Source: Candidatus Howiella sp.
GTDB lineage: Bacteria > Bacillota > Clostridia > Oscillospirales > Acutalibacteraceae
Assembly: GCA_050946935.1 (NCBI GenBank)
Contig: JBMNVR010000006.1
Coordinates: 22,691-86,690, forward strand
DNA: 64,000 nucleotides
Direction: 5' to 3'
Under the pieces are notes generated by a model. That model searched no databases and was not told the origin of the DNA. It saw only the letters and a list, made by a program, of their open reading frames with translations. Of the stretch, positions 240 to 25,794 are shown piece by piece. The stretch's first letter is position 1, and each line of letters starts with the position of its first letter. Position numbers and translations under genes: made by a program.

Positions 240-2930
240 TCAACTGGCGGAATCTGCGTATGTACTGACTGTTTTCGCCGAACTGCACACCGTATAGGTT
301 TCGCCCTCATAGGAATAGGTCAGATAGAAAATCACCGTGCGCAGGCGGTCGGGAGCGACGTTCTTCAGCCGGAAGCCATAACGGACATAAACGTCTATAT
401 CCTCCCCGCTGTTGAAAGACACCATCCGTGCCAACGCATCCATATCTCCGGAAATCAGCTTGCTGATTTCCGCTTCCGACGTGGCGTAATACACGCCGTA
501 ATTCTTGATCTGAATCTGGCTGCTGATGTCAGCGTAGGAGGTATTTTCCCCGGCCAGAATATGAGCGTTCCAGGTAATATCATACCGGTCTTCTGTAACC
601 GAATTGGTCACCATGCCTTCAGAAATATCAAAAGACATATCTACCGTGATCTCCCGCAAAGCGGCGATGGCCGCGCGGATAGCGGCGGCAAAAGCGTCTA
701 CCTCTTCCTGTCGGCCGGCGGGAAGGTCGCGAACCACGGCGCCGACCGCGTTTTGCAGGGCAAGCGTCGTCTCCAGAGTATATATGGAGAGGTCGCTTGG
801 GATCTCAGCGATTGCAGCGTCCACATCAGTATAATCCGCCGGCTCCGGTGCGTAAAGCTGCAGCTCAGCAAACTGTGTCCGGTTGTTGGTCGCGCCATTG
901 TTCGCGGTAATCTGCAACCGGTAGAATGTATAAGCCGCCGCGCCTTCGATTTCATATTTCTTTGTGCTGGAGGTGTTGTCCTCCCGGTCGGAGAAATCCT
1001 GCTCTGTTCTCGTATCCAAAACGACCCATTCGTTTCCGTCCGTCGACCCTGCCAGAGTCCAGTCGCGCGGGTCCCGGATAAAAAAGGTCGACTGATCCTC
1101 CGCCGTACTGATCGAATAGGCGGAAAGGGTTCGTGCCTCAGTCAGGGCAAATGTAATCTCAATCGGCGCGTCAACCGACGGGGTCACCTCAAACAGGCAC
1201 TTGGTTCCAACCATACCGTCAAACAGATAGCGCGCCAGATAGGTTCCCTGCTGGGTAGCTGCGCTCTGGATCGAGTCAGGATCAATCAGCCTTCCAAGAT
1301 CGGTGGGATCGCTCTCCGGCTCGGTGAGACGACCTATCTTCATCTCGGCAATCTGGGTGCGGTTGTCCGCTCCGTTGTTGGCGGTAATATTCAGCTTGTA
1401 ATAGAGGTAGGGCGTGTCATTGGTAAAATAATAAGCCTTTTCCAAAGAGAGCTTATCACTGCGGCCGTAAAAATCCTCCTCCGTCCGGGTGTCCAGTACA
1501 ACCCAATCCTCTCCGTTCAGCGAACCCTCAAAGGTCCACGCCTTAGGATCCCGGGGGAACTGGCCGCTGCCGTCGATACCGGCGTAGAGACTGTAATAGC
1601 TGACCGCCTTGGCCTCTGACAAGCGGAAGGTGACAAAGACCGGATTATCCGTGCTTGGCGTAATGTTGAAAAGCACCTTGGTTGTGACATCATCGTCGAA
1701 CAAATTACCAATCGGCTGGGATGTGTTCTGCGGTGTAGCCGCATCAATCGAATCGCCGACGATAAAGGGCGTGTAATCCCAGTCTGCAATCTCTATGAAT
1801 TCATACCCGATCGACAATTCGGCAATATGGCTACGATTGGTTGCGCCGTTGTTTTCTGTAATGTTCAGCTTATAATATGTATAGGCCGTCTCATTGCTGA
1901 ACGTAAAGGTTTTCGCCTCATATCGGGTAGAGAAGGTCTGCCCCGCACGAGTGTCCAGCACAACCCAATCCTCTCCATTCAGCGAACCTTCGAAAGTCCA
2001 AGCCCTGGGATCCCGAGTGCTCTGATCACCGGCGGTAGTGACCGTATACCGGTTGACCACTGCCGCCTCGCTCAGGGCAAAGGAAGCCCATACCGGGCTG
2101 GCCTCCGTCGACTGGATACTCAGCAGCCACTTGGTCGCCGGCGTCCCGTCGATCAGGTGAGAAATATCGTGCGCCGCCTGCTGGGTTTCGGTCGAACCGG
2201 TCAGAGTTTCCGAATCAATCAAACCGGTCAAATCGGTATAGGTCGGCTCCGGCATTGCCACACGCTGGGTACTGACGGCTAACTCAGCCAACTGTGTACG
2301 GTTGGAAGATCCGGTATTAGACGTAATATTCAGCTTGTAGTACAAGTAAGCGACGTCGTTGTCAAACGAGTAGGTTGCATTTTGGTTTGCGCCGGCGGCC
2401 CGTCCGGTAAACTGCTGCCGGGTTCTCGTATCCAGCACGACCCAATCCTCTCCATTCAGCGACCCTTCAAAGGTCCACGCCATAGGATCCCGGTCATAGA
2501 GACTGAGATCCGTCTCGGCCGCCATGGTCAGAGTATAGGAACGGATCGCGGCCGCTTCAGACAGCCCGAACGACACCCAGACCGGACTGTCTTCCGAGGG
2601 GGCGGCATAGACCAGCCATTTGGTTGTATAATCGCCGTCAAACAGGTTTGCGACCAGGTTTTCTCCATTCCCCTCGCTGCCGTCAACCGATTCGGTCAAA
2701 ACGGTGACCGCCGCGTCATTTTCCTCACCAGAGGCAAGCACTCGCAGCGTTTCCGACGAAGACGCAGTCACTGGTTTCATCGACTGCGAAGCTTCTTTAC
2801 CGTTGTCCGCCTGCTGTGCCGCGTCAGTCGCTACTGCATAGCCCGAACTCATTCCGAAAATGCTGCAAATCAAAGCTGCGGACAGTAAAACCGAACAACA
2901 TTTTTTCCTCCATAACGCCATGATGACCAT
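240..2930 (-). CDS. Secreted multi-module glycan-binding protein: signal peptide, five tandem F5/8 type C (discoidin/CBM32-like) modules, and a conserved C-terminal module shared with three neighbouring genes
   Basis: 896-aa ORF. N-terminus MVIMALWRKKCCSVLLSAALICSIFG looks like a Sec signal peptide. Repeated ~140-aa units each contain DPRAWTFEGSLNGEDWVVLDTR and YYKLNIT motifs typical of F5/8 type C domains. The last ~130 aa (GMVTNSV..YDITWNAHIL..NYGVYYATSE..VYVRYGFRLKNV) align with the C-termini of 15673..18285, 18675..22517 and 23088..25794. Confidence 0.8.
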   Translation of the reverse strand: MVIMALWRKKCCSVLLSAALICSIFGMSSGYAVATDAAQQADNGKEASQSMKPVTASSSETLRVLASGEENDAAVTVLTESVDGSEGNGENLVANLFDGDYTTKWLVYAAPSEDSPVWVSFGLSEAAAIRSYTLTMAAETDLSLYDRDPMAWTFEGSLNGEDWVVLDTRTRQQFTGRAAGANQNATYSFDNDVAYLYYKLNITSNTGSSNRTQLAELAVSTQRVAMPEPTYTDLTGLIDSETLTGSTETQQAAHDISHLIDGTPATKWLLSIQSTEASPVWASFALSEAAVVNRYTVTTAGDQSTRDPRAWTFEGSLNGEDWVVLDTRAGQTFSTRYEAKTFTFSNETAYTYYKLNITENNGATNRSHIAELSIGYEFIEIADWDYTPFIVGDSIDAATPQNTSQPIGNLFDDDVTTKVLFNITPSTDNPVFVTFRLSEAKAVSYYSLYAGIDGSGQFPRDPKAWTFEGSLNGEDWVVLDTRTEEDFYGRSDKLSLEKAYYFTNDTPYLYYKLNITANNGADNRTQIAEMKIGRLTEPESDPTDLGRLIDPDSIQSAATQQGTYLARYLFDGMVGTKCLFEVTPSVDAPIEITFALTEARTLSAYSISTAEDQSTFFIRDPRDWTLAGSTDGNEWVVLDTRTEQDFSDREDNTSSTKKYEIEGAAAYTFYRLQITANNGATNNRTQFAELQLYAPEPADYTDVDAAIAEIPSDLSIYTLETTLALQNAVGAVVRDLPAGRQEEVDAFAAAIRAAIAALREITVDMSFDISEGMVTNSVTEDRYDITWNAHILAGENTSYADISSQIQIKNYGVYYATSEAEISKLISGDMDALARMVSFNSGEDIDVYVRYGFRLKNVAPDRLRTVIFYLTYSYEGETYTVCSSAKTVSTYADSAS

Positions 2931-3223
2931 CCTTTCCCTTGCGATTCCTCTTCTTTTTCAATCTTGCTTTGGCCGTGCGAGGATTGACGAAAGCGCCGTT
3001 CATTTTAAAGCCTTGGAATCTGATATTCATGCCAAAATATATCCAATTTAAACATCAAAATGTCCGGCTTTCCTGTTTTATTTTACACCCTTTGTCTTAA
3101 CATACCATTGCAAATAAGATCGTATTAATTGTTTTTCTGACTATTTCTAAAAATAACTTTTTGTTCAAAAAACCATGTCAACAATCCGCTGTTTCCCTTC
3201 CAATCAATATATAATGACGATAT

Positions 3224-4171
3224 ATGTTGCAAAAAGAAAACCATCATCTTATAATACAATTGTCAAAACAGATCGAACAGCATAGCGGTTTTGATTCCTG
3301 CCGCAATTTAATCGACAAAGGAAAGCCGGGTTCAGCCATGCAGATTACAATAGGACATCTCTGTACGCCTAAGATGGCGCCAGACCGTTTTGAATGGCAC
3401 ACACATGAAACCTTTGAGATTTATTATATGCTGTCGGGCGCGGGACATTTTCTGATCGGGCAGGAGGCTTATGCGATTTATCCCGGCACACTGCTGATTC
3501 TCCGACCCGACGAAATGCATAAGGCGGTGATCGAATCCGATCAGCCCTACGAGCGCATTTTCGTTCATTTTTCTCCGGACGTGTTGCGGCCGATTGATCC
3601 CGAGCTACGGCTGTTGGCCCCTTTTATCAACCGGCCGGTCGGAAAACAAAATCTCTACAACTGCAAAAACTGCGACACCACCTTTATCGAGCGGTGCCTG
3701 AATCATATCGACACCCTGGTGGACACCAACTATGATGATTCTCTCGCGCTACGATCCTGCCTGTATCCGATTCTGCTGGAAATCGGCAAGGCTTTTCGCC
3801 AGACCGGGCCGGGCACATGCAAATACCGGGAGGTCATCATCCCGCGCATCCTTGATTATATTCATCTGAATCTCGGGCAGGATCTCTCCAAACAAACCCT
3901 GTGTTCTTTGTTTTATATCAGCCCCTCCCACCTCGGCCGGGAGTTTAAAAGAGCCACCGGACAATCGGTCAGCAACTATATCCGGGAGCGGCGTTTGATT
4001 CAAGCCCGCCGGCTGATCCACTCCGGCGCCTCTGTAACAGAGGCTGCCGCGAAGGCGGGGTTCAAGGATTATTCGGCTTTTTACCGGGCCTACCGCACGC
4101 AATTTGGCACGGGTCCGCGTCAAACGGGACGACAATCTGCCGCCCCGCTTTCCCAAAAATCAGATGCGTAA
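3224..4171 (+). CDS. AraC-family transcriptional regulator (cupin-like N-terminal domain plus AraC HTH)
   Basis: C-terminal RERRLIQARRLIHSGASVTEAAAKAGFKDYSAFYRAYRTQFG is a classic AraC HTH. The N-terminal HTHETFEIYYMLSG is a cupin fold. An alternative start ATG at 3338 (MQITIGHL) is possible. Confidence 0.8.
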   Translation: MLQKENHHLIIQLSKQIEQHSGFDSCRNLIDKGKPGSAMQITIGHLCTPKMAPDRFEWHTHETFEIYYMLSGAGHFLIGQEAYAIYPGTLLILRPDEMHKAVIESDQPYERIFVHFSPDVLRPIDPELRLLAPFINRPVGKQNLYNCKNCDTTFIERCLNHIDTLVDTNYDDSLALRSCLYPILLEIGKAFRQTGPGTCKYREVIIPRILDYIHLNLGQDLSKQTLCSLFYISPSHLGREFKRATGQSVSNYIRERRLIQARRLIHSGASVTEAAAKAGFKDYSAFYRAYRTQFGTGPRQTGRQSAAPLSQKSDA

Positions 4172-4201
4172 GCCTCATTCTGCAAAGAAGGCATACCGTC
4201 G

Positions 4202-4519
4202 TCAGAAATCCGATCCGACGGTTAACAGGGCGGCGACAGCCTGTACCGCCTCTTCCCCCGGATGATTCAGGGCGTAGGTGATTTCCCGGAAATGAATTCC
4301 CTCATATTCTCCCGTTTTGGCCGCGTCAATGAGGGTGCAGATTTCCTGCTCTGCCGGTAGAGCCTCCGCATTTTGGAAGGTCACAAGAACATGATTTTCA
4401 CGCAAGGCGTCAGAAGATGGGATAAAAGTATATTCTTCATCAGCCGCTTGCACGGATAATAAAGAGAATCCCCCAATCAATAAAATAACAGATAAACACC
4501 ATGAGAGAAGCTTTCGCAT
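4202..4519 (-). CDS. Small secreted hypothetical protein (signal peptide)
   Basis: 105-aa ORF. N-terminus MRKLLSWCLSVILLIGGFSLLSVQA is a signal peptide. No recognisable domain. Confidence 0.4.
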   Translation of the reverse strand: MRKLLSWCLSVILLIGGFSLLSVQAADEEYTFIPSSDALRENHVLVTFQNAEALPAEQEICTLIDAAKTGEYEGIHFREITYALNHPGEEAVQAVAALLTVGSDF

Positions 4520-4632
4520 ACGAATTTCTCTTTTTGTTATTTTTTCAAAAATGTAAAAATGTGTATTTTATATATAAAAACAAGCAAGCCCGAGGGGAGC
4601 GCAGCGGCTTCTCTCGGGCTTGCTTTCAACCT

Positions 4633-5919
4633 TCACGGCCGGGCGATAGGAGGTGCTCCCTCTGCCGAGGCTGGGGACGGTGCGTCTTTCTCCTCCGGAG
4701 GACATCCCTCCTCCGCCATAGTGGACGGAACCACTCCCTCTGCCGAGGCGGAAGCGGCCTCTCCACGATAGCTGAGCTTGAGCAAAATCGGCGTAATAAA
4801 GGAGGAAACGATCACCAGAAGGATTACAAACGGCATGAACGCCTGATCCAAAAAGCCGAGCGAAACGCCCCGCTGCGCGGTGATGAGAATCACCTCCGCT
4901 CGGCACATCATGCCCAGGCCAACCCGGCAGGCCTCTTGTTTCGAATAACCGCAAATTCGTGCACCCACCCCCGTGCCGAGGAATTTGGACAGCAGGCCGG
5001 CCGCTACAAAGCAGATTCCAAACCAAACAAGCGCCGGACTGAAACCGGACAGCTCGGTATTGATGCCGATGGTCGCAAAAAAGACCGGCGAAAAAATCAT
5101 GTAAGAGATAATATCCATCCGGTGTTCCAAATAATTGGAGGTTTTGAGATCGGAAAAAATGATCCCGGCAAAAAAAGCGCCGGTAATGTCCGCCAAACCG
5201 AAGTATCGTTCGGCTATGTATGAGTAGCCAAGGCAAACCACCAACGCAAAAATCACCGTCCGCCGCGTACCGGAGAACCAATCCTCCAGCTTATGGTACA
5301 CCTTGCGGATGACGACGCCGCCGACCCCCGCGACAACAAAAAAAGCCAGGATGCTCAGGGTCATTTTCAGCGGATGGGCTTCCGGATTCTTCAACCCGAT
5401 AAAGACCGTCAGGATAATGATCCCGATAATATCGTCGAGCACCGCTGCCGACAAAATCGAGGTGCCCACCCGGGTGGAAAGACGACCCATCTCTTTCAGC
5501 GCAGCGACCGTGATGGTCACACTGGTCGCGGTCAGCAGCACACCGTAAAACATGTTGGAAATCATCTGCTCCCGCCCGACAGCAAAGCCGCCGTTAAACA
5601 GGCTGGCTACAACATACCCGAAAACAAAGGGTACAATTACCCCGAGGCTTGTAATCACAGCTGAAGCCTTTCCGGTTGCGCGGATCTGCTTCAAATTGGT
5701 TTCGGTTCCGGCTGTAAACATGATTAAAACAACACCGATCTCCGCAAAAACATCCAGCAGCTCGCTCCCCTGCACGAGGCCGAGTGCCGTCGGCCCCAGC
5801 AAAACGCCGGCCAACAAAGCGCCGACCACCTCCGGCACATGGATTTTGCGCATAGCAAGGCCAAAGATTTTGGTAAATACCAAAATCAGGATCAGATCGT
5901 AAAAAATTTGCAGTTTCAT
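4633..5919 (-). CDS. Cation:proton antiporter (Na+/H+ exchanger family, CPA)
   Basis: 428-aa polytopic membrane protein. The N-terminal MKLQIFYDLILILVFTKIFGLAMRKIHVPEVVGALLAGVLLGPTALG is typical of Na+/H+ exchanger family proteins. The C-terminal tail is Pro/Ala/Glu-rich and low-complexity. Confidence 0.8.
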   Translation of the reverse strand: MKLQIFYDLILILVFTKIFGLAMRKIHVPEVVGALLAGVLLGPTALGLVQGSELLDVFAEIGVVLIMFTAGTETNLKQIRATGKASAVITSLGVIVPFVFGYVVASLFNGGFAVGREQMISNMFYGVLLTATSVTITVAALKEMGRLSTRVGTSILSAAVLDDIIGIIILTVFIGLKNPEAHPLKMTLSILAFFVVAGVGGVVIRKVYHKLEDWFSGTRRTVIFALVVCLGYSYIAERYFGLADITGAFFAGIIFSDLKTSNYLEHRMDIISYMIFSPVFFATIGINTELSGFSPALVWFGICFVAAGLLSKFLGTGVGARICGYSKQEACRVGLGMMCRAEVILITAQRGVSLGFLDQAFMPFVILLVIVSSFITPILLKLSYRGEAASASAEGVVPSTMAEEGCPPEEKDAPSPASAEGAPPIARP

Positions 5920-6069
5920 ACGAGTACTCCTCCCTTTCGCCGCTACGGACGATATTTTTGCTGTTTTCCTTTATCGTCGACGCACTGAAAATAGACACCG
6001 TCCATTTTCAGAAAGCGAAAAACAGCAAGAATCCATAAAGTATACAGACCATCCGTTGCCCGGCTGTTT

Positions 6070-6504
6070 TTACAGTACCATCAACAAGGTACCCGCACTG
6101 ATCAGCACACAGCCGATCGCCGATTTCCATGTGAAATCCTCATGCAGGAAAACGAACGCCAGAACAAGCGTAATCACCACGCTCAGCTTGTCAATAGAGA
6201 CCACTCTGGACGCCGGACCCGTTTGCAAGGCCTTATAATAACACAACCATGAAGCGCCGGTGGCAAGGCCAGACAAAATCAGAAACAGCCAGCTTTTGTT
6301 ACTGATCTCACCGATGCCCTTTTGCGCGTTGGTCAGAAAAACCATCCCCCAGGACATAAGCACCACAACGCAGGTTCGGATAGCCGTCGCAAGATTTGAA
6401 TTGACCCCGTCTATACCGATCTTGGCAAGAATCGAGGTAAGGGCCGCAAAGACAGCGGAACAAACAGCGAAAAGCATCCACACAATCCAACACCACTTTA
6501 CCAT
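6070..6504 (-). CDS. Small EamA-like (DMT superfamily) 4-TM transporter
   Basis: 144 aa with four hydrophobic helices. The LAKIG..LSGLATGASWLCYYKALQ motif resembles EamA domains. Confidence 0.65.
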   Translation of the reverse strand: MVKWCWIVWMLFAVCSAVFAALTSILAKIGIDGVNSNLATAIRTCVVVLMSWGMVFLTNAQKGIGEISNKSWLFLILSGLATGASWLCYYKALQTGPASRVVSIDKLSVVITLVLAFVFLHEDFTWKSAIGCVLISAGTLLMVL

Positions 6505-6945
6505 TCATTTATCAAATTGTTCTTTCCATTTGCTTCCGTCAGCAGGCGCCGGATCGCGCGGGCCGACGAAATCTTCGTCTTTTTGCGGAAAGATGACGGC
6601 ACGCAGCCGGCATACACAGGCAAACGCCAACTTTTATCATTATACGCTTATGCACAAATACAGTCAAGAACAGCCCACCACAAACTTTTGCGTATGCGAC
6701 ACAGCCTTTTCTGTTTATTTTTGCACCGAAGCACACGCTTGCGGCGTCTTGTGTTTTTCTTTGTATTTTGTGCTGCCGCGGCATCCCCGTCCGCCGCGCA
6801 AAACGACGGCGAAAAAACAATGTTCAAAGACGGACTTTATTGCGGAGAAATCGAAAAGCAGCGTATTCTTTGCGTATTATAACAAGAAAGACGGGGGAAA
6901 CTATCAGAAAGAAGAAAGACGAGGTGAACTGCCGTGAGCGACAAT

Positions 6946-7098
6946 ATGCAAAAACGATACCTACAGGATAAACCGGAGCTTTTGCAGTATTTTGAGACTC
7001 TGCCGACTGCTCTGCAGGAGACGATTCTGATGGAGAGCCCTGATTTTTCCACCGTGGAGGAGATGCGCTGCTTTGTCGACAATATCCAGAAGCAGTAG
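6946..7098 (+). CDS. Small hypothetical protein (~50 aa)
   Basis: ATG at 6946 (MQKRYLQDKPELLQYFETLPTALQETILMESPDFSTVEEMRCFVDNIQKQ), stop at about 7098. It lies between a ~430-bp non-coding stretch and a bidirectional terminator hairpin. It is shorter than the ORF-track cutoff. Coding potential was not verified. Confidence 0.25.
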   Translation: MQKRYLQDKPELLQYFETLPTALQETILMESPDFSTVEEMRCFVDNIQKQ

Positions 7099-7170
7099 GG
7101 TGTAAACACTGCCTCTTCAAAGCTTGCGCGACTGAAAAGAGATGGGCAGCGATATAGCAAGGGAGTGGCT

Positions 7171-7210
7171 CTGCGAACATTTCGCAGAGCCACTCCCTTT
7201 TCGGTTACCC
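7171..7210. terminator. Bidirectional Rho-independent terminator between convergent genes
   Basis: Perfect hairpin GGGAGTGGCTCTGCGAA-CATT-TCGCAGAGCCACTCCC followed by TTTT, located between the small (+) ORF and the 3' end of galU (-). Confidence 0.55.
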
Positions 7211-7267
7211 CGACAGCAAGAAACGCCCGCTTTCAGGGCGGATGTTTCTTCCATCCAAGCAAAAAAT

Positions 7268-8137
7268 TTACAGCGTTTGGCCGAGCGCCTTCAGATAGCT
7301 GCGCAATTGGTCGCGAATCTCAGGATGCGAGAGACCCACCTCAATATTCGCCTGCAGAATGCCGAATTTGTTACCCATGTCGTACCGCTTTCCGGTGAAG
7401 TCCACCCCCACCATGCCGTCCCGCCGAGCCAGCGTTTTCATCGCGTCGGTGAGCTGCAGCTCGCCGCCCGCACCGGTCGGCGTCTGACGCAGAATTTCAA
7501 ATATCTCCGGCGTAAGGACGCAGCGCCCCAAAATGGAAAAGAGGGAAAGAATCTCCTCCTCCGAGGGTTTTTCCACCATGTCGGTCACGGCGTAGGTTCG
7601 CTCTTCCAAGGGGGAAACCGCCATGGAACTGTATTTTTTGATCGCCTCGCGCGAAACCTCCTTAATTCCAACCACCCCTTTGCCATAGGTCTCATACGCG
7701 CGGCAAAGCTGAGCGATCGCGGGATCCTCCCCGATAATCACGTCGTCGCCGTAGAGAACAGCAAACGGCTCGTTCCCGACAAACTGCTCGGCGCACAGCA
7801 CCGCATGGCCGAGGCCCTTTGTCTCCTTCTGGCGGAGAAAATATATGTTTGCGAGGTTGGCCGGCGCTTCAACCGCGGTCAGCAGATCGGTCTTGCCACG
7901 GGCGCGGAGCATACTTTCCAGCTCGGGCGCATGGTCAAAATGATCCTCGATAATCCCTTTGCCGCGGTTTGTGATAATCAGGATGTCGGTAATGCCGGAC
8001 GCTGCCGCCTCTTCCACGATATATTGAATAGCCGGCTTGTCCGCTATGTTCAGCATCTCCTTCGGTACCGCCTTGGAAGCCGGAAGCACCCGTGTGCCCA
8101 GGCCGGCCGCCGGAATAATCGCCTTGCGTATTTTCAT
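7268..8137 (-). CDS. galU: UTP--glucose-1-phosphate uridylyltransferase
   Basis: MKIRKAIIPAAGLGTRVLPASKAVPKEMLNIADKPAIQYIVEEA is the canonical GalU N-terminus. Start ATG at 8137 with RBS GGAAAGAGGG upstream. The upstream extension to 8254 in the ORF track is not coding. Confidence 0.9.
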   Translation of the reverse strand: MKIRKAIIPAAGLGTRVLPASKAVPKEMLNIADKPAIQYIVEEAAASGITDILIITNRGKGIIEDHFDHAPELESMLRARGKTDLLTAVEAPANLANIYFLRQKETKGLGHAVLCAEQFVGNEPFAVLYGDDVIIGEDPAIAQLCRAYETYGKGVVGIKEVSREAIKKYSSMAVSPLEERTYAVTDMVEKPSEEEILSLFSILGRCVLTPEIFEILRQTPTGAGGELQLTDAMKTLARRDGMVGVDFTGKRYDMGNKFGILQANIEVGLSHPEIRDQLRSYLKALGQTL

Positions 8138-8289
8138 AATAAAACCCTCTTTCCGCATCCGGAATGATTTTTGAAAACGCCGGTCTGATCGGGCTGGCGT
8201 TTTTATATAGGTATTTTTGTATGCGGAACACCTTACCCTCAATATACAAACCATACTGTCCTTGGTACATCGAGGGAAACATTCCGTTT

Positions 8290-9827: not shown

Positions 9828-9832
9828 TCCGA

Positions 9833-15672: not shown

Positions 15673-17170
15673 CTACGCCGCAATGACGGCAAGCACCTCG
15701 TCGACCGTGCTGAGCAGGATGTAGCTCTGTCCGTTCAGCTCGTACTCGATGTAGAACATGGCCGCGCGTACACGGTTCTCGGTCACGTTCTTCAGCCGGA
15801 AGCCATAGGCGGTGTAGACATCTACATCCTCGCCCTGGGCAAAGACGATCTTACGGATCTGATCGGCCGAGGCATTCTTGTAGTCGTCCAGCACATCTTT
15901 GCCGGTCGAGTAGTAGACGCCGTAGTTCTTGAACTTTACACCGGCCGCGTTGATGTCCTCAGCCAGCTTGTCGTCGGGGAGAAGAATCCGTGCGTTCCAG
16001 GTGATGTCATACTTGCCCTCGGCCGCGGCGGTCACCATGCCGGCGCCGATGGTCAGCTCCATCTCGGCCGACGCGGGTACGAGAGCGAGGATAGCCTCCT
16101 CAATCGCGGCGGCATAGCCGTCGACCGTCGCCTGCTCGCTGGCTGTGAGGTCGCGCACCACCGCGTTCACCGCGGTCTGCAGTTTCGCCCAGGAGGCTTC
16201 GGTGTAGTCTCCCTCGGTCAGAGCGGCAGCCTTGTCAAGGGCCGCGTCCACCGCGGTGTAGTCGGCGTAAATAGACGCCGCAAACGCTACAACTGTATCA
16301 TTCAGAGTAAAATCACGGAATGTGGCCGGAATTTCAGCCGTTTCGGCCTTATTGCCGCCTTTACCGGTAAACAATCCGACCTGCACCGCACCGGAGAGCC
16401 CTTCGTGTTCCTTAGTCCAAACCGTCTCCCAAGTACTGTTGTCGGTGCTCCACGATGCTTCAAAGGAAGTCCCGGTTCTTACAATTTTCAAATAGATATC
16501 TGAACCCACAGCCGTATCGGCGACTGCGTTTTCACTCGGACTGCCGGCCTGCACATCCACGCCGCAAACGCAATTGTTTCCGTGGCCGGAATGATACCGT
16601 CGCTGTACCGAGAATATTTCCTCATCGCTCGCGTATACGATCAGGCCGGCCGACTGATAATCGGTGTCCGGGGCAAAGCTCAGTTTTGTGGTAACTGAAA
16701 AATCGCCCTCGCCCGCATCGGTCAGCAGCATGTTGGTGTACACCCGCGGGGAGTCCCAGAGTTCCCCGGTTGTCGTATACATGGTAATCTGTTTTTCAGA
16801 TTCCAAATCATACAGGGTTTTGTCCTCGTTTTTAAACGTCCAGACGTCGGACAGGGTATAAGCCGACTTGGGCGCCAACTGCGAAATTGCGTTTTCAATC
16901 GCGGCGGCCATGGCATCTACTTCAGCCTGCTCAGTGGCATACTTACCGGTAACCACTGCGGCAACCGCTGCGTCCACAGCCTTACAGGAAGCTACCGTAT
17001 ACTGTGTACGGTCGATCTTTTCGGCCGCCTCGATCGCCGCATTCACGGCCGTATAGTCCGCCTTGGGATCGTTTCTCATGATAAATTTCGCATCGGAATA
17101 GGTTCCGTTCGCGCCGTTTACGCTGTCTCCGCTTTGTAGAATACGAATTTCCAGACTGCTTTTGCCCTGC
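15673..17170. repeat. Inverted-repeat arm A (near-identical blocks ~15673-16330 and ~16860-17170) matching arm B at ~24360-25794
   Basis: Identical 62-aa antisense ORFs 16868..17056(+) and 24414..24602(-). Near-identical ORF pairs 15929..16117(+)/25350..25538(-) and 16722..16916(-)/24554..24748(+). The encoded protein blocks PKADYTAVNAAIEAAEK..ITMY and EIPATFRDFTLNDTVVAFAAS..end are ~97-100% identical between the two paralogs. The intervening concanavalin-like segment is only ~60% identical. Confidence 0.8.
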
Positions 17171-18285
17171 ACATTCAGGCTGATTTTCTCCGCCTCGCTG
17201 TCGCGGGTAAAGACCACACCGGATACATTGGCAGGCGTGACATCCTCGCCGTCAAGATAAACAGCAAACGTACACTGTCCGGAAGCAGCCCCTGTAATTC
17301 CTACATAGGATTCAAAGGTAACGGCGTCCACCGGGACAGCGTAGGCGATCTTGGCTGTTGCGTTGGCTGAAACGCCCTTGACCTGATAGGTGGCCACCCC
17401 GTTCATTTGCAACGTATAGGCCTTATACTCCACAGCGGCATCCACCCACTTGCCGGCCCAGCTGAAGCTTTCAGAGGTTGGGGTCAAATCGGAAAGATAT
17501 GTGATATTCTCCGGCTTTTCACCAATCACAACAGTGAGGGAGGGCGCCAATTTATCCGGGTTGGAAACCGTCGCCGGCAGACTACCGGTCAGGACATAGG
17601 TTCCGACGATTGCCGGCGTAAATTCGGAGATATCCCAGCTAACCTCCACCTCCTCTGTGGTATTGTCGCTCATCTGCAACGACACTGACTGCGGCAGAAG
17701 ATAAGGATCTCCGTAGGTAAGATTCAGAGTATCAGGATTCGTAATGCCCACAACCGAACGGCTGTCTTTTTCGGTAAATTCAAAATAATCCACCGTAATC
17801 CGATCACCGCTCGTCGTTCCGGTAAGGGTAAAGGTGATGGTATTATCCCCTTCGTTCAGTTCAACATCCCCGACCGTCACCAGCAACATTGCATTTTTCT
17901 TGGTCGCATACGTGCTGATCGGATCGCCAATGTTCGTCCCGTTTACCGAAACCTGAACAACCCCGGGGTTTCCGTCATGCGACCGATACTGCCAAGACAT
18001 GGAGTAGCTTCCCGCGTTCATGGTCGACACCGTATAGGTCACATATTCTCCGACGCCGCCACCCGAGACCTGCAAATACCCGTCGCCCGAGATCGAATTC
18101 CCACCCGGCGAAAAAGTGCCTTTCGCGGCGGTGGCGCCATCCGAAACCACGTAGGAAGTTGTCTCTCCCTCGAATCTGGTCACGTCCCCTGCGACCGCGT
18201 TTACCGATGGAATCATCGACACGGAAAACAGAGATACCGTCAGCATCAAAGCCAGAACAAGCGCAAGACATTTTTTAATCTGCAT
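15673..18285 (-). CDS. Large secreted glycan-binding protein. Modules: CBM6/35-like, Ig-like, NPCBM-like, FIVAR helical repeats, concanavalin-like (GH43-C/DUF1349-like), and the conserved C-terminal module
   Basis: Signal peptide MQIKKCLALVLALMLTVSLFSVSMIPSVNA. An NPCBM-like segment (NITYLSDLTPTSESFSWAGKWVDAAVEYKAY..). A concanavalin-like segment (WDSPRVYTNMLLTD..DYQSAGLIVY..FSVQRRYHSGH). FIVAR-like DYTAVDAALDKAAALTEGDYTEASWAKLQTAVNAV. C-terminal module KYDITWNARILLPDD..YILLSTVDEVLAVIAA. Confidence 0.8.
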   Translation of the reverse strand: MQIKKCLALVLALMLTVSLFSVSMIPSVNAVAGDVTRFEGETTSYVVSDGATAAKGTFSPGGNSISGDGYLQVSGGGVGEYVTYTVSTMNAGSYSMSWQYRSHDGNPGVVQVSVNGTNIGDPISTYATKKNAMLLVTVGDVELNEGDNTITFTLTGTTSGDRITVDYFEFTEKDSRSVVGITNPDTLNLTYGDPYLLPQSVSLQMSDNTTEEVEVSWDISEFTPAIVGTYVLTGSLPATVSNPDKLAPSLTVVIGEKPENITYLSDLTPTSESFSWAGKWVDAAVEYKAYTLQMNGVATYQVKGVSANATAKIAYAVPVDAVTFESYVGITGAASGQCTFAVYLDGEDVTPANVSGVVFTRDSEAEKISLNVQGKSSLEIRILQSGDSVNGANGTYSDAKFIMRNDPKADYTAVNAAIEAAEKIDRTQYTVASCKAVDAAVAAVVTGKYATEQAEVDAMAAAIENAISQLAPKSAYTLSDVWTFKNEDKTLYDLESEKQITMYTTTGELWDSPRVYTNMLLTDAGEGDFSVTTKLSFAPDTDYQSAGLIVYASDEEIFSVQRRYHSGHGNNCVCGVDVQAGSPSENAVADTAVGSDIYLKIVRTGTSFEASWSTDNSTWETVWTKEHEGLSGAVQVGLFTGKGGNKAETAEIPATFRDFTLNDTVVAFAASIYADYTAVDAALDKAAALTEGDYTEASWAKLQTAVNAVVRDLTASEQATVDGYAAAIEEAILALVPASAEMELTIGAGMVTAAAEGKYDITWNARILLPDDKLAEDINAAGVKFKNYGVYYSTGKDVLDDYKNASADQIRKIVFAQGEDVDVYTAYGFRLKNVTENRVRAAMFYIEYELNGQSYILLSTVDEVLAVIAA

Positions 18286-18584
18286 AATCGTTTCCTCCTC
18301 AATTTCTTAATTTTATCGTCCGCATTTTATATAAAAAATCCACACGGCAACAATAAAATTTGTTTTTTCTTCCTATATAGAATAGCACTTTCCCATTCGA
18401 TTGTGCAATAAAAATATTGCTAAAATAAATAAAATATTTTAAATAATTAAGCCAATATCATCCTGGTTTATCATAAATATTATCAAAACAGTGTTTTTTT
18501 AAACAAGCCAGAATCATTTTTTGCAATTTTGATAAACAAGGAATGTAACCTTGTTTCCTTCTTGGATACACAGGCTAAAAAGAC

Positions 18585-18625
18585 AAAAGCAGCCTCCTGA
18601 AAAATCAGGAGGCTGCTTTTCGTTA
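18585..18625. terminator. Bidirectional Rho-independent terminator downstream of the 18675..22517 gene
   Basis: AAAAGCAGCCTCCTGA-AAAAT-CAGGAGGCTGCTTTT is a perfect palindrome with T-runs on both sides. Confidence 0.55.
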
Positions 18626-18674
18626 ACCGTTATACAAATAACCCGCGGCTGATCCGGCAAAACCCGGATGCATA

Positions 18675-21600
18675 TTACTCCGCAATCACAGCGACAACCT
18701 GATCGGTTGTGCTGAGAAGAATGTAGCTCTGCCCATCCAGTTCATATTCCAAATAGAACATAGCGGCACGAACCCTGTTTTCCAGCACGCCCTTGAGACG
18801 GAATCCGAACTGGGTATAGACCTCTATATCCGTACCCTGCTCAAAGACAATCTGCCGGATCTGCTCGGCCGAGGCATTCTTATAGTCATCCAGAACCTCG
18901 CTTCCGGTCGCGTAATACACGCCATAGGCTTTAAAGATGATGCCCGATTCATTAATCTCGCCGACCGAAGTATTCGCTCCCGGAACGATCGAACCATTCC
19001 AGGTAATATCGTACTTTCCGTCTTCGGCATTGGCGGTCACCATGCCGGTGCTGATCTGCACCGACATTTCAACCTTATCGGCGATATCCGCGATCAGTTG
19101 GAGGTCGGAAAGCGCCGCCTCAATCGCGTCGGCATAGCCGTCGACGACCGATTGCTCAGTGATCTTTTTGCCCTCGACCACCGCGTTCACCGCTTCTTCC
19201 AAAACCAACCAGCTTTCCGGCGTGTAGTTGGCCTGGGTCAGAGCGGCTGCCTTGGCCTTTGCCGTATTGACCCTCGAATAATCGGCGTCTTTTATCTCCA
19301 GCCCGGTCACTGCGCTCTCAATCGCGGAGGCATAGTCGTCCACCGTAGACTGAGCCGCAGGGGCAAGGTTGTATTCCACCGCATCCACAGCAGCAGTCAG
19401 AGCGTCCGCACTCGCGTCGGTATAGATCGAAAGATCGGCGGGGACCTTGGCCAGCGCGGCCAAAACCGCGTCATAGTTGGCTTCTTTCGTCGTGATCAGC
19501 GCCAGCTCTCCAAGCTGCATCTTGCCGACCGAGGACATGGTAAAGGCCGCCTTGAAATAGGTATAGCCTTCGGTTGCGCTGTCCAGATACATGGTAACCG
19601 GGGTATTATTGGTCGTCGGCAGGCTCAAGGCCGAGTTGATAATCTCGGTCCAGCTCTGACCCTCGTCATTGGAACCGTACAGAATCCAGGAGACCGGGTT
19701 GCGTCCGCCCGGCGTATTGTCCGCAACCGCGGTATCTCCGCCGGTGGAGAGGATATAGCCCGAGATCTTAACCGGCGTGGCCGTACTGAACACGGTATCC
19801 ACATAGCTGTCATTATTCATATACAGCTTATTGGTATAGTCGCCGTCGAACAGCTTCTCATAGCCCTCACTATCGTGCTCCCGTCCAGAGATCGGGGTGA
19901 CATACTTCGCGTTGTCATAAACTTCCAGCGCGTCGACCAGCGCGTCATAGGCCGCGCGGGCGGCAGTCAGGGTCGCATAATTGGTTACATAGACACGCGC
20001 GTCGACCAGAAGATCGGCATAAGCTGCCTCGGCCGCTTCGATGGCGGACAGCTTGTTGCCGGACGGGCCGAGGGTGGTCACCTCGCCAATCGCATCGATC
20101 AAAGCAACGACCGGCGCAGCCATCGTCTGAAGCTCTTCTTCGCTCAGCGTACTTTCAAAACCGTCGGCGGTCAATACGCCCTTGGCAAAGACCAGACGCT
20201 CAGCCGTAGACTCTGTCGCATTCAAATCGCCCGTACCCGAGAAGAAGGCAGTAGCGCCGCCCTTGGCGTCGATGACCGCCGCCATATCTCCGGTAATAAC
20301 ATAGCCGTTGCCAGCAGCAGTCTTCAACTGCGCCTCATACCCTTCGGCATCGGTGGCCAGCGCCACACTGCTGAGAATATCACCCGTGCTCAGCAAAACG
20401 GCCGAGCCATCATCGCTTTGGAAATTCTGATAATAGGTATTCTCGCCCGCGAGACCGGCGTTGGCCGTGGGATACCCGAGCGTCTTACCCGCCCACTTGT
20501 TGGTTTGCGCATAGTTGGCGTACATATACCGGAACACGTTGCCGATCGCAGCAGCATAGTCGCCGGATCCGGGGTAGGTCGCGACGGAATCTACCGTGAT
20601 GCTCTTCCCGTTTTCGCGCGGGGTGGTAACGTGCGAGATGGTTTTATCCCACATGACCTGATAGGTCCGCCCGTCGGCGGTCAGATCAAATTCCTCGCCC
20701 AGCGGCGCCTGCTTGTGATTATCGTTTACAACCATGTAGCCGCCGACATCAAAGGCCATTCCACTGAACGGCACAATCAGGTAGGACCAGTACCGTCCGT
20801 CCTGATTCCAGGGGTTCCAACAGTTGTCATTGGCGCCATTCTTGCCGATATCCACAAACTTGTTATCGAGCTGTGCGCCAAACACGCTGTCATGGTTTTC
20901 GGTTGACCCGGTGCGGCCGGAGACAACACCGATGTTAATCATCCGTTCGGAGTAGAAATATTTGACCGTATCCTCCATCGCGCGAAGGGTGGTGTTCCAC
21001 TCGTCGTCGGTCTGGAGCGCCAGCCAAGGCTGGTTGGTCGCAGTCATACGATCGCGGTTCAAAGTAAAGGTAACGCCAAAGTCGGCAATGACCTGCGCAT
21101 AGGTCGCCTTGGCATTCTTCGCGTCAGCATAGTTGACCACATAGGTCTGCACATCCGTCTCGCCCAAAGCAGAGACCGCATCGGTGTAAATTGCCTCGAT
21201 CGCATCCAGACTGGTTTTGGATTTATAGGTGATCGGCATGACCGCCTTGATCGCTTCGATCGTGTTGTAGATATAGGTATAATCCTTGCCGTCCGCTTTG
21301 GCCTGCGCGATGGCCGCCGGCGCGGTGAGATCGGCAATATTGGAGACATATGCCTGATTCTCCACGCTCAGAGCCGCATACGCATCCCGCGCGGCGTCAA
21401 CCGCTTCGAAATACGCGTCGGTGAGCGGCTCAGTGGAAGCAATCGCGGCAATCAGCGCCTCCGTCTCCTCGATCGCAGCCGTGCCCGAATACACGCTGCC
21501 ATAGGTCCGCCACTCATCGAACTGGCAATAGCCGCTGGTGATGTTTCTGAAAGCGGTAATCTCCAATTTGTAATAGGAATATTCGGCCGGGCTGTCCACC

Positions 21601-22517
21601 TTGAACATGGTGTCTACCCAGCAGCAGCGCGTCTCTGACGCAGGGGTAAAATCGGTCACCGCGTCGATCAGCGTGTAATCCTTTCCGTCAGAGGAGCCGT
21701 AGAAATTCCAGGATTTCGGATCGCGCTCGCTGCTGTCGTTGGCCGTCATATAGGTATAAGCGTACACCGTGGTCGGCACGGTCGTCGTATAGGTCAGAGT
21801 GGGCACCTCGCCCGCGTCGAAATTGATGCCCATTTTGTTGCCGAGACCGGCAAAAAGCTTAGCCGGGCCTTCCCCGCCATCGGCCCCGGTTTTGCTGCGG
21901 CTTCCCGAAACAACCTTTGCGTTATCGGCATCCACATAGGAGGTCAGATCAGTAATGGCATCCTTGTAAAAATACATCTGCCGGGCATTGGCCACGGCGG
22001 AATACCCCTCCTCGCCGATATACTCGACTGAAATGGTCTGTGTACCCGTCAGTCCCGCAAAGGAGACGATGGTCGAGAGATTGCGATTCTCCCAACTGGC
22101 ATCGGAGGACCGGGTATAGGGCGGCAGCTTCACATTGCCAAGCAACGTGCAGTTTGCAGGATCAGTCCAGTAGTTGCCAAGATAGACGTTGGCGTTGGCC
22201 GAAGCCGGGCAGCGGTTATCCGTGCTGCGCCCCGAATAGTGGATTTGCATCGATGAGTAGGTTCCTTCCCCGAATTCGATGCTGTAAACCGCGACCGAAC
22301 CGTTGATCGTACTGATGTTGCTCGTCTCATTCGCAACACCGTAGTTGCCGTTGGAATTGGTTTCGGTCTTGCTGGTTGCACCAATGGTGGTGTTGCACTC
22401 TACCGTTAGGTAGTCGGCCGATGCATACTCGGCCACGACTGTAAACATAGCCATCGGCAAAGCCGAAAGACACAGGCAGACAGCGAGCAACACAGCAAGC
22501 AGCTTCTTTGCTTTCAT
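18675..22517 (-). CDS. Giant (~1280 aa) secreted multi-module protein. Modules: CBM-like N-terminal domain, two F5/8 type C modules, several FIVAR helical repeats, a ~300-aa central domain of unknown function, and the conserved C-terminal module
   Basis: Start MKAKKLLAVLLAVCLCLSALPMAMF at 22517 with RBS AGGAGGAAAAATC. First discoidin segment DPKSWNFYGSSDGKDYTLIDAV..YYKLEITAF. Second discoidin segment YEKLFDGDYTNKLY..NPVSWILYGSNDEGQSWTEI. C-terminus KYDITWNGSIVPGANT..YILLSTTDQVVAVIAE. Confidence 0.8.
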   Translation of the reverse strand: MKAKKLLAVLLAVCLCLSALPMAMFTVVAEYASADYLTVECNTTIGATSKTETNSNGNYGVANETSNISTINGSVAVYSIEFGEGTYSSMQIHYSGRSTDNRCPASANANVYLGNYWTDPANCTLLGNVKLPPYTRSSDASWENRNLSTIVSFAGLTGTQTISVEYIGEEGYSAVANARQMYFYKDAITDLTSYVDADNAKVVSGSRSKTGADGGEGPAKLFAGLGNKMGINFDAGEVPTLTYTTTVPTTVYAYTYMTANDSSERDPKSWNFYGSSDGKDYTLIDAVTDFTPASETRCCWVDTMFKVDSPAEYSYYKLEITAFRNITSGYCQFDEWRTYGSVYSGTAAIEETEALIAAIASTEPLTDAYFEAVDAARDAYAALSVENQAYVSNIADLTAPAAIAQAKADGKDYTYIYNTIEAIKAVMPITYKSKTSLDAIEAIYTDAVSALGETDVQTYVVNYADAKNAKATYAQVIADFGVTFTLNRDRMTATNQPWLALQTDDEWNTTLRAMEDTVKYFYSERMINIGVVSGRTGSTENHDSVFGAQLDNKFVDIGKNGANDNCWNPWNQDGRYWSYLIVPFSGMAFDVGGYMVVNDNHKQAPLGEEFDLTADGRTYQVMWDKTISHVTTPRENGKSITVDSVATYPGSGDYAAAIGNVFRYMYANYAQTNKWAGKTLGYPTANAGLAGENTYYQNFQSDDGSAVLLSTGDILSSVALATDAEGYEAQLKTAAGNGYVITGDMAAVIDAKGGATAFFSGTGDLNATESTAERLVFAKGVLTADGFESTLSEEELQTMAAPVVALIDAIGEVTTLGPSGNKLSAIEAAEAAYADLLVDARVYVTNYATLTAARAAYDALVDALEVYDNAKYVTPISGREHDSEGYEKLFDGDYTNKLYMNNDSYVDTVFSTATPVKISGYILSTGGDTAVADNTPGGRNPVSWILYGSNDEGQSWTEIINSALSLPTTNNTPVTMYLDSATEGYTYFKAAFTMSSVGKMQLGELALITTKEANYDAVLAALAKVPADLSIYTDASADALTAAVDAVEYNLAPAAQSTVDDYASAIESAVTGLEIKDADYSRVNTAKAKAAALTQANYTPESWLVLEEAVNAVVEGKKITEQSVVDGYADAIEAALSDLQLIADIADKVEMSVQISTGMVTANAEDGKYDITWNGSIVPGANTSVGEINESGIIFKAYGVYYATGSEVLDDYKNASAEQIRQIVFEQGTDIEVYTQFGFRLKGVLENRVRAAMFYLEYELDGQSYILLSTTDQVVAVIAE

Positions 22518-23087
22518 GATTTTTCCTCCTTCATATATTCCGTTTTCAGAACACCGAAAGTTATTTGGCCACAAAAACAGGTGTTTTTACGACACACTTG
22601 CTCAAACTTCACTATATTTTTACAAAAATCCGGAGAAGCTTTAAGCACAATAACTATCTTCCTATTATGTATAGCACATTTTGAAAAATAATTATATAAA
22701 AATTGTGCTCTAAAATTCCAAATTTTTGTTTTAAAATGTTTCAATTGAATCCACACTGAAAGATTCTCGCCTTTTTATTCACTTGAAGGATTCAAGCGTG
22801 GTAAAATTTTGTTAAATAGTATTTTTTTGTTATAGTCTGCTCGAATTTTTCCTTTACAACCATCCATTTGATAACAAAAGAACATCTTTTCTGAAAGAAT
22901 ACTCCAAAAAAGAAGAATTCGCCTTTTTTACACAGCACCATATGTTCGGGTCAGTAAATTGTCATATTTTTTCAATTTATTTGTATTATAGTTAAAACAA
23001 CTTAACTTTTTATTGATTTTTATGGACTATATTGTATAATATTAAGCATAAAGTTTATGTTTAGTATGTTATAGGAGGTAAAAGACA

Positions 23088-25794
23088 ATGAAAAAATATA
23101 TTTTCAAAGCGTTTTTGATCATCCTTGCTCTGGCCATGGCGCTGTCATCCGTGGGGACTACGCTGGTGGTCGCTGCTATCAACGACGGGGACGAGGTGAT
23201 CTATCTCTCCTCCAACGAGGGTCAGAAGTTGCTGACCGACTCCAACACCGGATTTGGCGATCTCACCTACAACCAGAATCTGAACAAGAACGGGAAGATC
23301 ACCTACAACAAGCCGAATACGACAGGGGATTCCTATACGGCAACCGAATCTGACAACGGATTGGTCGCCCATGCCGAGGCCAACCTCTATTATAATATTG
23401 AGGGGCAGGGCTTTACTGCGTTTGAAAGCTGGATTGGCATTGATTCAGTCACCGGCAACGGAGACGGGGTAGCCAGCGTAATTTTTGAATTTTATCTTGA
23501 CGACGCCCTAATCTATACGGCGAGCGAGCAGACCCTTACCTCGGCGGCCGAGTATGTTTCCATCAACATCAGCGGCGGCAAGACCTTCCGGATCCATATT
23601 GACCCGAACGGTGTGAACAACTGCGACCACGCCGTACTGGTCGAGGCCGCTTTCTTAAAACAGAGTGCGGAGGGGAAGACCACCGTGACCTCGATCACAC
23701 CGCAGTTTATGAACATGGAGTATGCGCAACCATATGTGTTTCCCTCCACCGCCAGCGTCACCCTGAGCGATGGCACCACGCAGGAATGTGCCGTGTCGTG
23801 GGACACCTCTTCATTTTCAGCGACCACACCGGGAGAGCAGCTACTAAACGGCACAATCAGGCTTGGTGACAACATGCTGAATCCGAATGGGGTGCATGCC
23901 TCCCTCAGCGTGACGGTCGGGGAGAAGGATGAAAACATTCTCTATCTTTCCGATCTGACGGTCCAGGATGAATCCTATGACTGGGCATCCTCCTGGCTGG
24001 ACGCTGCGGTGGAGAACAAGACCTGGCAGTTGAAGATTGAGGATGTCTATACCAACATGGTAAAGGGCGTCTCGGCCAATACCTACGCCTATCTGACCTA
24101 TGAAATTCCGACCGGTGCGACGAATTTTGAGGCGTATGTCGGCACAACAGCGGCTGCGTCCGGTAAGACCGCGTATTCCATTCGGCTTGTACGATACCTA
24201 TGAAAACAAGGATTCGACGTATACGGACGCGACGCCGGATAACATCAAGAACGCGGTTTTCACCAAGGACACCAATGCACAGAAGATCAGCGTAGACGTT
24301 ACCGGATACAATTACATCATGATCCGCTTTGAAAAGGTAAACGACGACAACTCCAGCGCGCACGGCACGTATGCGGACGCCAAATTTCTGATGGAAGACG
24401 CACCTAAAGCGGACTATACGGCCGTGAATGCGGCGATCGAGGCGGCCGAAAAGATCGACCGTACACAGTATACGGTAGCTTCCTGTAAAGCTGTGGACGC
24501 AGCGGTTGCCGCAGTGGTTACCGGTAAGTATGCCACTGAGCAGGCTGAAGTAGATGCCATGGCCGCCGCGATTGAAAACGCAATTTCGCAGTTGGCGCCC
24601 AAATCGGCTCATACCCTGTCCGACGTCTGGACGTTTAAAAACGAGGACAAAACCCTGTATGATTTGGAATCTGAAAAACAGATTACCATGTATGCGACAA
24701 CCGGGGATCTCTGGGATTCCCCGCGGGTGTACACCAACATGCTGCTGACCGATGCGTCAGAAGGGAATTTCACTGCGACGGTGCAGCTGACCTTCTCGCC
24801 GGACACCGATTATCAGTCGGCCGGCCTGATCGTATACGGCAGCGATGCGGAGATCTTCTCAGTACAGAGGCGGTATCACTCTGGCCACAACGGCAACTGT
24901 ATCTGCGGCGTTTCGGTGACGTCGGGCAACCCGAGCGAATCGTCGGTCAGCGACACCGGCGCGGAAACGATCTATCTGAAGGTAGAGCGGACAGGGAACA
25001 GCCTCGCCGGATACTGGAGCACGGACAATACCGAGTGGACGACCGTTTGGACCAAGGAAAACGCCTCGCTTTCGGGCACAGTTCAGGTAGGCCTGTATAC
25101 TGGCAAGGGAGGAGATTCCCCAAAGGCAGCTGAAATTCCGGCCACATTCCGTGATTTTACTCTGAATGATACAGTTGTAGCGTTTGCGGCGTCTATTTAC
25201 GCCGACTACACCGCGGTGGACGCGGCCCTTGACAAGGCTGCCGCTCTGACCGAGGGAGACTACACCGAAGCCTCCTGGGCGAAGCTGCAGACCGCGGTGA
25301 ACGCGGTAGTGCGCGACCTCACAGCCAGCGAGCAGGCGACGGTCGACGGCTATGCCGCCGCGATCGAGGCGGCTATCCTCGCCCTCGTACCTACATCGGT
25401 TGAGATGAGTCTGACCATCGGCGCCGGCATGGTGACCGCCGCGGCCGAGGGCAAGTACGACATCACCTGGAACGCACGGATTCTTCTCCCCGACGACAAG
25501 CTGGCTGAGGACATCAACGCAGCCGGTGTGAAATTCAAGAACTACGGCGTCTACTACGCGACCGGCAAAGATGTGCTGGCCGACTACAAGAATGCCTCGG
25601 CCGATCAGATCCGTAAGATCGTCTTTGCCCAGGGCGAGGATGTGGATGTCTACACCGCCTACGGCTTCCGGCTGAAGAACGTGACCGAGAACCGTGTACG
25701 CGCGGCCATGTTCTACATCGAGTACGAGCTGAACGGACAGAGCTATATCCTGCTCAGCACGGTCAACGAGGTGGTTGCCGTCATCACGGCGTAA
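23088..25794 (+). pseudogene. Frameshifted paralog of 15673..18285 (NPCBM-like, concanavalin-like, FIVAR and C-terminal module), split into ORFs 23088..24203 and 24100..25794
   Basis: The N-terminal ORF has a signal peptide (MKKYIFKAFLIILALAMALSSVGTTLVVA) and NPCBM-like content. It stops at 24203 (..GKTAYSIRLVRYL*). The reading frame continues in the +1 frame (IPFGLYDTYENKDSTYTDA..) and aligns to the intact paralog (..CTFAVYLDGEDVTPANV..). The frame switch lies near 24175-24190. Confidence 0.7.
24360..25794. repeat. Inverted-repeat arm B (matches 15673-17170)
   Basis: See arm A. The same identical or near-identical antisense ORF pairs apply. Confidence 0.8.

Follow-up and report, generated by a model that had tools for sequence, protein, structure and literature searches.

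A lineage-restricted C-terminal module with a fibronectin III fold on secreted glycan-binding proteins of Candidatus Howiella: a candidate cell-surface address domain

Ruminococcus albus has a species-unique carbohydrate-binding module (CBM), CBM37, which is appended mostly C-terminally to many carbohydrate-active enzymes (CAZymes) and non-catalytic proteins, is present in many copies per genome, and very rarely occurs with a dockerin; the R. albus genome also encodes dockerin proteins (PMC4081043, PMC4300822). CBM37 is reported to mediate attachment of enzymes to the bacterial surface or cell wall (PMC4081043, PMC4300822). It is the closest known analogue of the module described here, which forms the C-terminus of four secreted proteins encoded in a stretch of 64,000 nucleotides (the window) of Candidatus Howiella sp., an uncultured gut member of the Clostridia (assembly GCA_050946935.1, contig JBMNVR010000006.1, positions 22,691 to 86,690 of the forward strand). 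The Howiella module shows the same arrangement, being mostly C-terminal, attached to diverse CAZymes and non-catalytic proteins, and not accompanied by a dockerin in any family member, in a genome that does encode dockerins. Both modules have a fibronectin type III (FN3) fold and a narrow lineage. The FN3 character of CBM37 was confirmed by a match to Pfam fn3 (E 7.8e-6) at the C-terminus of the GH11-CBM22-GH10-CBM37 xylanase of R. albus 7, and CBM37 matches only R. albus among 72,556 plasmids.

There are also clear differences. The Howiella module is about 30 residues longer than CBM37 and has helices in two of its loops, B-C and C-C'. Tandem copies are frequent for CBM37, whereas the family hidden Markov model (HMM) finds no tandem copies of the module in the six-frame translation of the window. 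Binding has been demonstrated for CBM37, whereas for the module we infer it. Homology between the two was looked for and rejected: when a module profile of 62 sequences was compared by hhalign with a single CBM37 sequence and with a pair of them, the probabilities were 0.04% and 0.07%, and a tblastn search with the module found no match in the plasmid collection, of which the R. albus 7 plasmids are part. The claim made here is therefore that the module may work like CBM37, not that it is a member of that family.

The first-pass annotation of the window reported four secreted proteins ending in one shared module, and this was confirmed. Both tblastn with each module of about 131 residues and the family HMM find exactly four copies, with cross-copy E values of 4e-28 to 7e-82 and the next best tblastn matches in the window at E ≥ 0.05. 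Sharing on this scale is far beyond chance. The identities between copies are 41–43% (copy 1 with copies 2–4), 66–68% (copy 3 with copies 2 and 4) and 95% (copy 2 with copy 4). The range first given, about 50% to about 97%, was thus slightly high. A candidate fifth copy at 26176..26319 was rejected: its tblastn matches are weak (E 0.05–0.16), it falls inside an EamA transporter gene, in an antisense frame, and the family HMM misses it.

With its approximately 125–130 residues, the module defines a lineage-restricted domain family that had not been annotated before: a new sequence family with an ordinary fold. The profile searches proposed in the first-pass annotation found no Pfam-A match at E ≤ 0.01 and no relevant NCBIfam family at E ≤ 0.1, and PDB sequences also gave no match. 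At a Pfam-A threshold of E ≤ 10, three of four module sequences that were scanned still match no family, and the fourth, copy 1, matches only fn3_SORL1 (E 0.073 over 20 residues). An AlphaFold model of the copy 2 module, calculated from the 62-sequence alignment, has a mean predicted confidence (pLDDT) of 94.2 and is an FN3-type β-sandwich. Its all-β core has seven strands in the Greek-key arrangement of the FN3 superfamily, with short helices in the two loops noted above. It replaces an earlier AF2 model built from six sequences, which had a pLDDT of 69 and gave only generic Ig matches. The prediction made from the sequence alone, of a β-rich module at the extreme C-terminus, was therefore correct, and structure prediction gave a confident model, whose fold is nevertheless a common one. 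Canonical FN3 domains of bacterial glycosidases differ in that they are usually internal and unconstrained in position; the Pfam fn3 model (PF00041) misses the module, and hhalign against human FN10 gives a probability of 0.3%. The residues that are invariant or nearly so are G50 and R101, together with W24, Y49, Y53, R91, Y109, G113 and S120, and the mean column identity is 34%.

The module had been set apart at first reading from LPXTG/transmembrane tails and from SLH, CWB2, dockerin and cohesin domains, and this distinction holds. No HMM for SLH, CWB2 or any other wall-binding or sorting domain in Pfam or NCBIfam matches it. The cohesin domain is a nine-stranded jelly-roll of about 140 residues, and cohesin identity (PF00963) is ruled out by the fold of the model, which is not a cohesin jelly-roll. 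The type I dockerin model (PF00404) matches neither the four proteins nor the isolated modules, and the same library does detect a dockerin elsewhere in the window (58418..61876). LPXTG sortase substrates have, at the C-terminus, an LPXTG-type motif, then a hydrophobic segment and finally a basic tail. The C-termini in the window end in ...LSTVDEVLAVIAA or similar, and no family member has LPXT[GAN] among its last 60 residues.

The extent of the family was determined by an exhaustive HMMER search of 1.84 billion (1.84e9) cluster representatives. There were 88 matches at E ≤ 1e-3, of which about 80 are genuine. Four are spurious: P0074 and P0087 match through repeated FN3-like units with a similar 'EYGFYYGT' strand, and P0070 and P0082 through unrelated repeats. 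A word-index search with the module or with the 62-sequence profile returned only 3–5 short fragments, and evidently misses long multidomain proteins. Nearly all family members are unnamed proteins from ENA or Logan metagenome assemblies. The Candidatus Howiella metagenome-assembled genome (MAG) contains a fifth module-bearing protein, on a different contig. A scan of GTDB genomes found close relatives in only one species representative, UMGS577, and a metagenome scan with a narrower alignment found seven loci. A literature search for 'Howiella' returned only a nomenclature list.

It is striking that the module is almost always the last domain of the protein. At most three residues follow it in 73 of 83 family sequences, and this holds across subfamilies that share only 22–30% identity. 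Eight of the 83, all distant members, have an acidic tail of 17–22 residues after the module, and it is internal in only two (P0041 and P0066), so that it is not, as might have been feared, a domain that is mostly internal in its homologues. The tail-bearing members (P0072, P0075, P0079, P0080, P0081, P0083, P0085 and P0089) do not come from the window. Their tails, of around 20 residues, have the conserved pattern G-G-x-I-x-G-x-G-x-T-x-E-x-x-D-x-L-D-D, and the cargo of this subgroup includes endonuclease/exonuclease/phosphatase-family and SGNH domains.

The positional data bear on the possibility that the module binds no specific ligand and is simply an FN3 domain in a structural role, as a cap or spacer, which duplication and gene conversion have spread together with its helical linker. 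Bacterial glycosidases often have FN3 domains as spacers, and the fold matches to the model are generic. However, spacers are normally internal, and the module is terminal over deeply diverged subfamilies; several of its residues are invariant or nearly so against a mean column identity of only 34%; and about half of the members have no linker, the module being joined directly to the cargo. A FIVAR-like helical unit lies immediately upstream of the module in 38 of 77 members, and elsewhere the module follows straight on from other domains. (These helical units were recognised by eye, and an ad-hoc HMM was then built from them, which finds them across the family.) On balance we regard a plain spacer as unlikely.

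The proteins that carry the module are secreted. The N-termini of all four proteins in the window resemble Sec signal peptides, as originally proposed, and in the family as a whole 74 of the 81 long sequences that start with Met (the 81 include three spurious matches) have signal-peptide-like N-termini, so that the module is not one that occurs mostly in cytoplasmic proteins. Most of the other seven appear to be gene calls that are truncated at the 5' end or begin at the wrong start; one of the seven, P0082, is spurious. The cargo is diverse: Pfam analysis of 50 full-length members identifies LamG-like domains, CE2/SGNH esterases, NPCBM, CBM32, CBM35/6, GH78 rhamnosidase, GH76 and PL8.

A small β-sandwich at the extreme C-terminus of diverse secreted cargo is reminiscent of the C-terminal domain of the type IX secretion system (T9SS) of Bacteroidota. 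This raises the question of whether the module could be a signal for export or sorting that a dedicated secretion or processing machine recognises and cleaves off, and thus a Gram-positive counterpart of that domain; the module is also of roughly the right size. The likeness is one of analogy only. The T9SS domain belongs to another phylum and envelope type, there is no match in sequence or to the Por_Secre_tail HMM, and the module comes from a Clostridia MAG with no T9SS. Moreover, the module proteins have normal Sec signal peptides, an outer membrane is not expected in a clostridial host, no linked machinery genes were seen, and the nearby sortase belongs to a broadly conserved CinA fusion (see below). 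We consider an export signal extremely improbable.

The positions of the four genes and of other features in and next to the window are collected in Table 1.

Table 1. Coordinates of the module genes, module copies, linkers and other features (window positions unless stated otherwise).
Feature	Position	Strand	Details
Module protein 1	240..2930	(-)	896 aa; signal peptide, 4x CBM32 (F5/8 type C), one FIVAR-like helical unit, C-terminal module
Module copy 1, type B	243..644	(-)	Found by tblastn and family HMM
FIVAR-like helical linker	651..842	(-)	Directly upstream of module 1
Module protein 2	15673..18285	(-)	870 aa
Module copy 2, type A	15676..16068	(-)	Sequence used for the structure model
Helical linker	16072..16260	(-)	Upstream of module 2
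Module protein 3	18675..22517	(-)	1280 aa with signal peptide from ATG at 22517; open reading frame 18675..22574
Module copy 3, type A	18678..19073	(-)	
Two FIVAR-like helical units	19098..19490	(-)	Upstream of module 3
'X' domain	20145..21092	(-)	In module protein 3; about 300 aa
Module protein 4	23088..25794	(+)	Paralog of protein 2; frame broken by 1-nt insertion near 24189
Module copy 4, type A	25399..25791	(+)	
AraC-family regulators	3224..4171; 51217..52359	(+)	Beside module genes
AraC-family regulator, locus L001	L001 10715..11566		Beside module gene
CinA-sortase fusion	28801..31665	(-)	954 aa; 3 kb from module genes
Glycyl-radical enzyme and activase, adjoining GH38-like gene	41849..44775; 45390..47855	(-)	
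Secreted PA14/arabinofuranosidase-like enzyme	58418..61876	(-)	Ends in type I dockerin (Pfam)
CBM32-GH92-CBM32-Big_2-dockerin gene	L016 7444..12144		212 bp beyond the left window edge

Three of the four genes are as first described. The fourth is not a single intact open reading frame (ORF): it is split into ORFs 23088..24203 and 24100..25794 by a single-base insertion (24185..24195) that lies outside any homopolymer, and is either a pseudogene or a consensus error in the MAG. A database record of protein 1 from the Candidatus Howiella sp. MAG is identical from the Met at 2921, and an identical copy of protein 2 is found among the proteins of a Candidatus Howiella sp. (Clostridia) MAG.

The CBM-rich N-terminal architectures that had been proposed are largely confirmed by Pfam, which identifies four F5/8-type-C domains in protein 1, an F5/8-type-C domain in protein 3, and NPCBM, Big_4 and concanavalin-like domains in proteins 2 and 4; the FIVAR-like units depend on inspection and the ad-hoc HMM. 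Protein 2 consists of a signal peptide, a CBM6/35-like domain, Big_4, NPCBM, a helical unit, a concanavalin-like domain (GH43_C2/DUF1349), a second helical unit and the module. In protein 4 the order is two NPCBM domains, Big_4, a helical unit, a concanavalin-like domain, a helical unit and the module, and in protein 3 it is a signal peptide, a CBM-like domain, CBM32, an unannotated 'X' domain, a second CBM32-like domain, two helical units and the module. The X domain has no Pfam match and no match among PDB sequences. It recurs, at times twice, in 22 of about 80 representatives of the module family, has conserved motifs that include PNDN..PW, VPF.GMAF and N.FRYAYA.Y.Q.NKW, and may be an uncharacterised glycan-active or glycan-binding domain.

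No recognisable catalytic domain is identified by Pfam in three of the four proteins in the window, among them protein 1. A secreted protein made up entirely of CBMs makes sense only if its other end is tethered, and a tether is therefore to be expected. Could the module itself be an ordinary CBM, directed at dietary or host glycans and with no role in attachment to the cell? Its sandwich is of the FN3/Ig-like kind seen in many CBMs, the cargo is glycan-directed, and CBM37 itself binds many polysaccharides (PMC4081043). On the other hand, such a function would leave unexplained the strict C-terminal position, the exclusion of dockerins, and the presence of one conserved module on cargos of very different predicted specificities, and the all-CBM proteins would still have no tether. 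An ordinary CBM therefore seems doubtful.

The relationship to dockerins is informative. The type I dockerin resembles the module in being a C-terminal tag on many otherwise unrelated secreted CAZymes, often after a linker, and in being homogenised within a genome. It differs in structure, being a duplicated EF-hand-like Ca-binding helix-loop-helix of about 60–70 residues, whereas the module is a 130-residue β-sandwich. Dockerin-ending CAZymes lie beside the module genes, both in the window and just outside it (Table 1), and the genome therefore has a dockerin system. Dockerin-ending genes are also found near module genes at loci L001, L002, L006/L015 and L011, and they flank module genes at several loci of UMGS577 and of metagenome contigs. 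No dockerin-like or LPXTG-like motif was found in any family member in a motif scan. The dockerin is thus an alternative C-terminal tag in the same genome.

The repeated adjacency of module and dockerin genes could be taken to mean that the module is a protein-protein docking module, either as a non-cohesin receptor for the neighbouring dockerins or as the ligand of a dedicated scaffold, in a cellulosome-like complex. The homogenisation within a genome resembles the co-evolution of cohesins and dockerins, and the two conserved types of module, A and B, are common to different genomes. However, in the loci no gene was seen that resembles a scaffold in having repeated receptor domains, and the adjacency may merely reflect the clustering of secreted genes for glycan utilisation. 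We judge such a docking role very unlikely.

The genes next to module genes encode AraC-type regulators, housekeeping functions and dockerin proteins. AraC-family regulators stand beside module genes at two places in the window and also at L001, L006 and L015. The neighbourhood of protein 1, with an AraC regulator and a Na+/H+ exchanger, is syntenic in UMGS577, where the module protein has a different N-terminal cargo. Elsewhere in the window, a glycyl-radical enzyme (PFL-like plus Gly_radical) and its radical-SAM activase adjoin a GH38-like α-mannosidase; taken with the GH92 gene and the CBM32/NPCBM proteins, these genes hint at mannose- or N-glycan-related metabolism.

The proximity of a sortase gene had been offered as support for a role at the cell envelope, and this argument has to be withdrawn. 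The sortase is the C-terminal half of a CinA-transmembrane-sortase ORF. The encoded protein has a complete CinA (MoCF_biosynth, CinA_KH and CinA), a low-complexity linker of about 150 residues, a transmembrane segment and a class-B-like sortase domain with an intact TLSTC motif. The same Pfam combination, sometimes with PASTA, occurs in more than 100 clusters at 90% identity, of 900–1250 residues, from uncultured Clostridia; these are annotated only as 'competence/damage-inducible protein A'. A link between sortase and module was rejected, since the fusion is broadly conserved without any specific tie to the module and the module proteins have no sortase signal.

The paralogous proteins 2 and 4 are informative about how the module evolves. 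Their helical linkers and modules have 94–100% nucleotide identity, whereas the intervening concanavalin-like domain has 59–83%. The helical linker units at 16072..16260 (-) and 25210..25398 (+) are 98–100% identical in DNA, as is the region at 16900..17000 (-) and its counterpart in the paralog. Near-identity of linker and module next to diverged domains indicates that the two genes are a mosaic, in which recent gene conversion has been limited to the cassettes of linker and module. Recombination of this kind could be neutral, as the spacer explanation would have it. In UMGS577, the type A modules have substitutions in common that distinguish them from the type A modules of the window, and in five of seven loci the contig breaks off within the module, which is what a near-identical repeat would be expected to cause. 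By these comparisons, the module copies within a genome evolve in concert. Copy 1, of type B, is 70% identical to the UMGS577 copy in L006, compared with about 42% to the type A copies of its own genome, and the divergence into at least two module types is therefore older than the separation of these organisms.

On the basis of these observations, we hypothesise that, in Candidatus Howiella and related uncultured Clostridia, the module is a shared C-terminal 'address' on proteins that are secreted through Sec and bind or act on carbohydrates. The partner bound by the module would be common to these proteins and could be a glycan of the cell wall or a receptor on the surface; binding would display the CBMs and enzymes, which are N-terminal, on the cell. 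The module would work in parallel with, and in place of, the dockerin on neighbouring secreted proteins. Non-covalent tethering of secreted glycan-binding proteins at the bacterial surface through such a partner is the role that we consider most likely for the module, with a probability of roughly 45%. That it binds at all, and what it binds, we infer. The strict terminal position, the unrelated cargos, the several copies per genome, the exclusivity with dockerins and the all-CBM proteins together argue for an address domain rather than a spacer, and the case for retention or docking, built on position, distribution, mutual exclusivity with dockerins and the analogy to CBM37, is a plausible one. 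The original interpretation of the module is thus supported in part.

Several points weigh against tethering. Binding is a predicted function only. The FN3 fold is generic, and often no more than a plain spacer; in sequence the module is not homologous to CBM37 (hhalign probability <0.1%); and gene conversion can be neutral and is no proof of a common ligand. The two internal members and the eight with tails indicate that a free C-terminus is not absolutely required. The conserved partner gene that the first-pass annotation suggested looking for did not emerge from clustering the ORFs of 15 related loci and the 64-kb window, where AraC regulators and dockerin genes were the only conserved neighbours. 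Finally, the host is uncultured, so that its wall chemistry cannot be consulted.

A more ambitious version of the tethering hypothesis, which on present evidence we think distinctly unlikely, is that Gram-positive gut anaerobes have a new, species-specific system of surface assembly of which the module is one half, and that the module is a third kind of 'address tag' beside the dockerin and CBM37. Types A and B would each have a dedicated receptor, either a glycan of the wall or a protein, and the protein might even be one of the orphan dockerins that cohesin-poor Oscillospiraceae have; module and receptor would co-evolve by concerted evolution.

It is worth considering what tethering would mean. 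Many abundant gut and rumen Clostridia secrete large proteins rich in CBMs and enzymes that have no recognisable anchor, and how such proteins are retained on the cell is largely unexplained outside the cohesin-dockerin, SLH, sortase and CBM37 systems. If the module does act as a tether, the new domain model would serve as an annotation marker for surface-displayed glycan-binding proteins in uncultured Oscillospiraceae-like bacteria, and the compact, well-folded module could be tried directly as a display tag or as a probe for wall glycans. It would also be a second, independent C-terminal tag of the FN3 type, which would suggest that attachment by 'private' modules, each specific to a lineage, is a solution that recurs.

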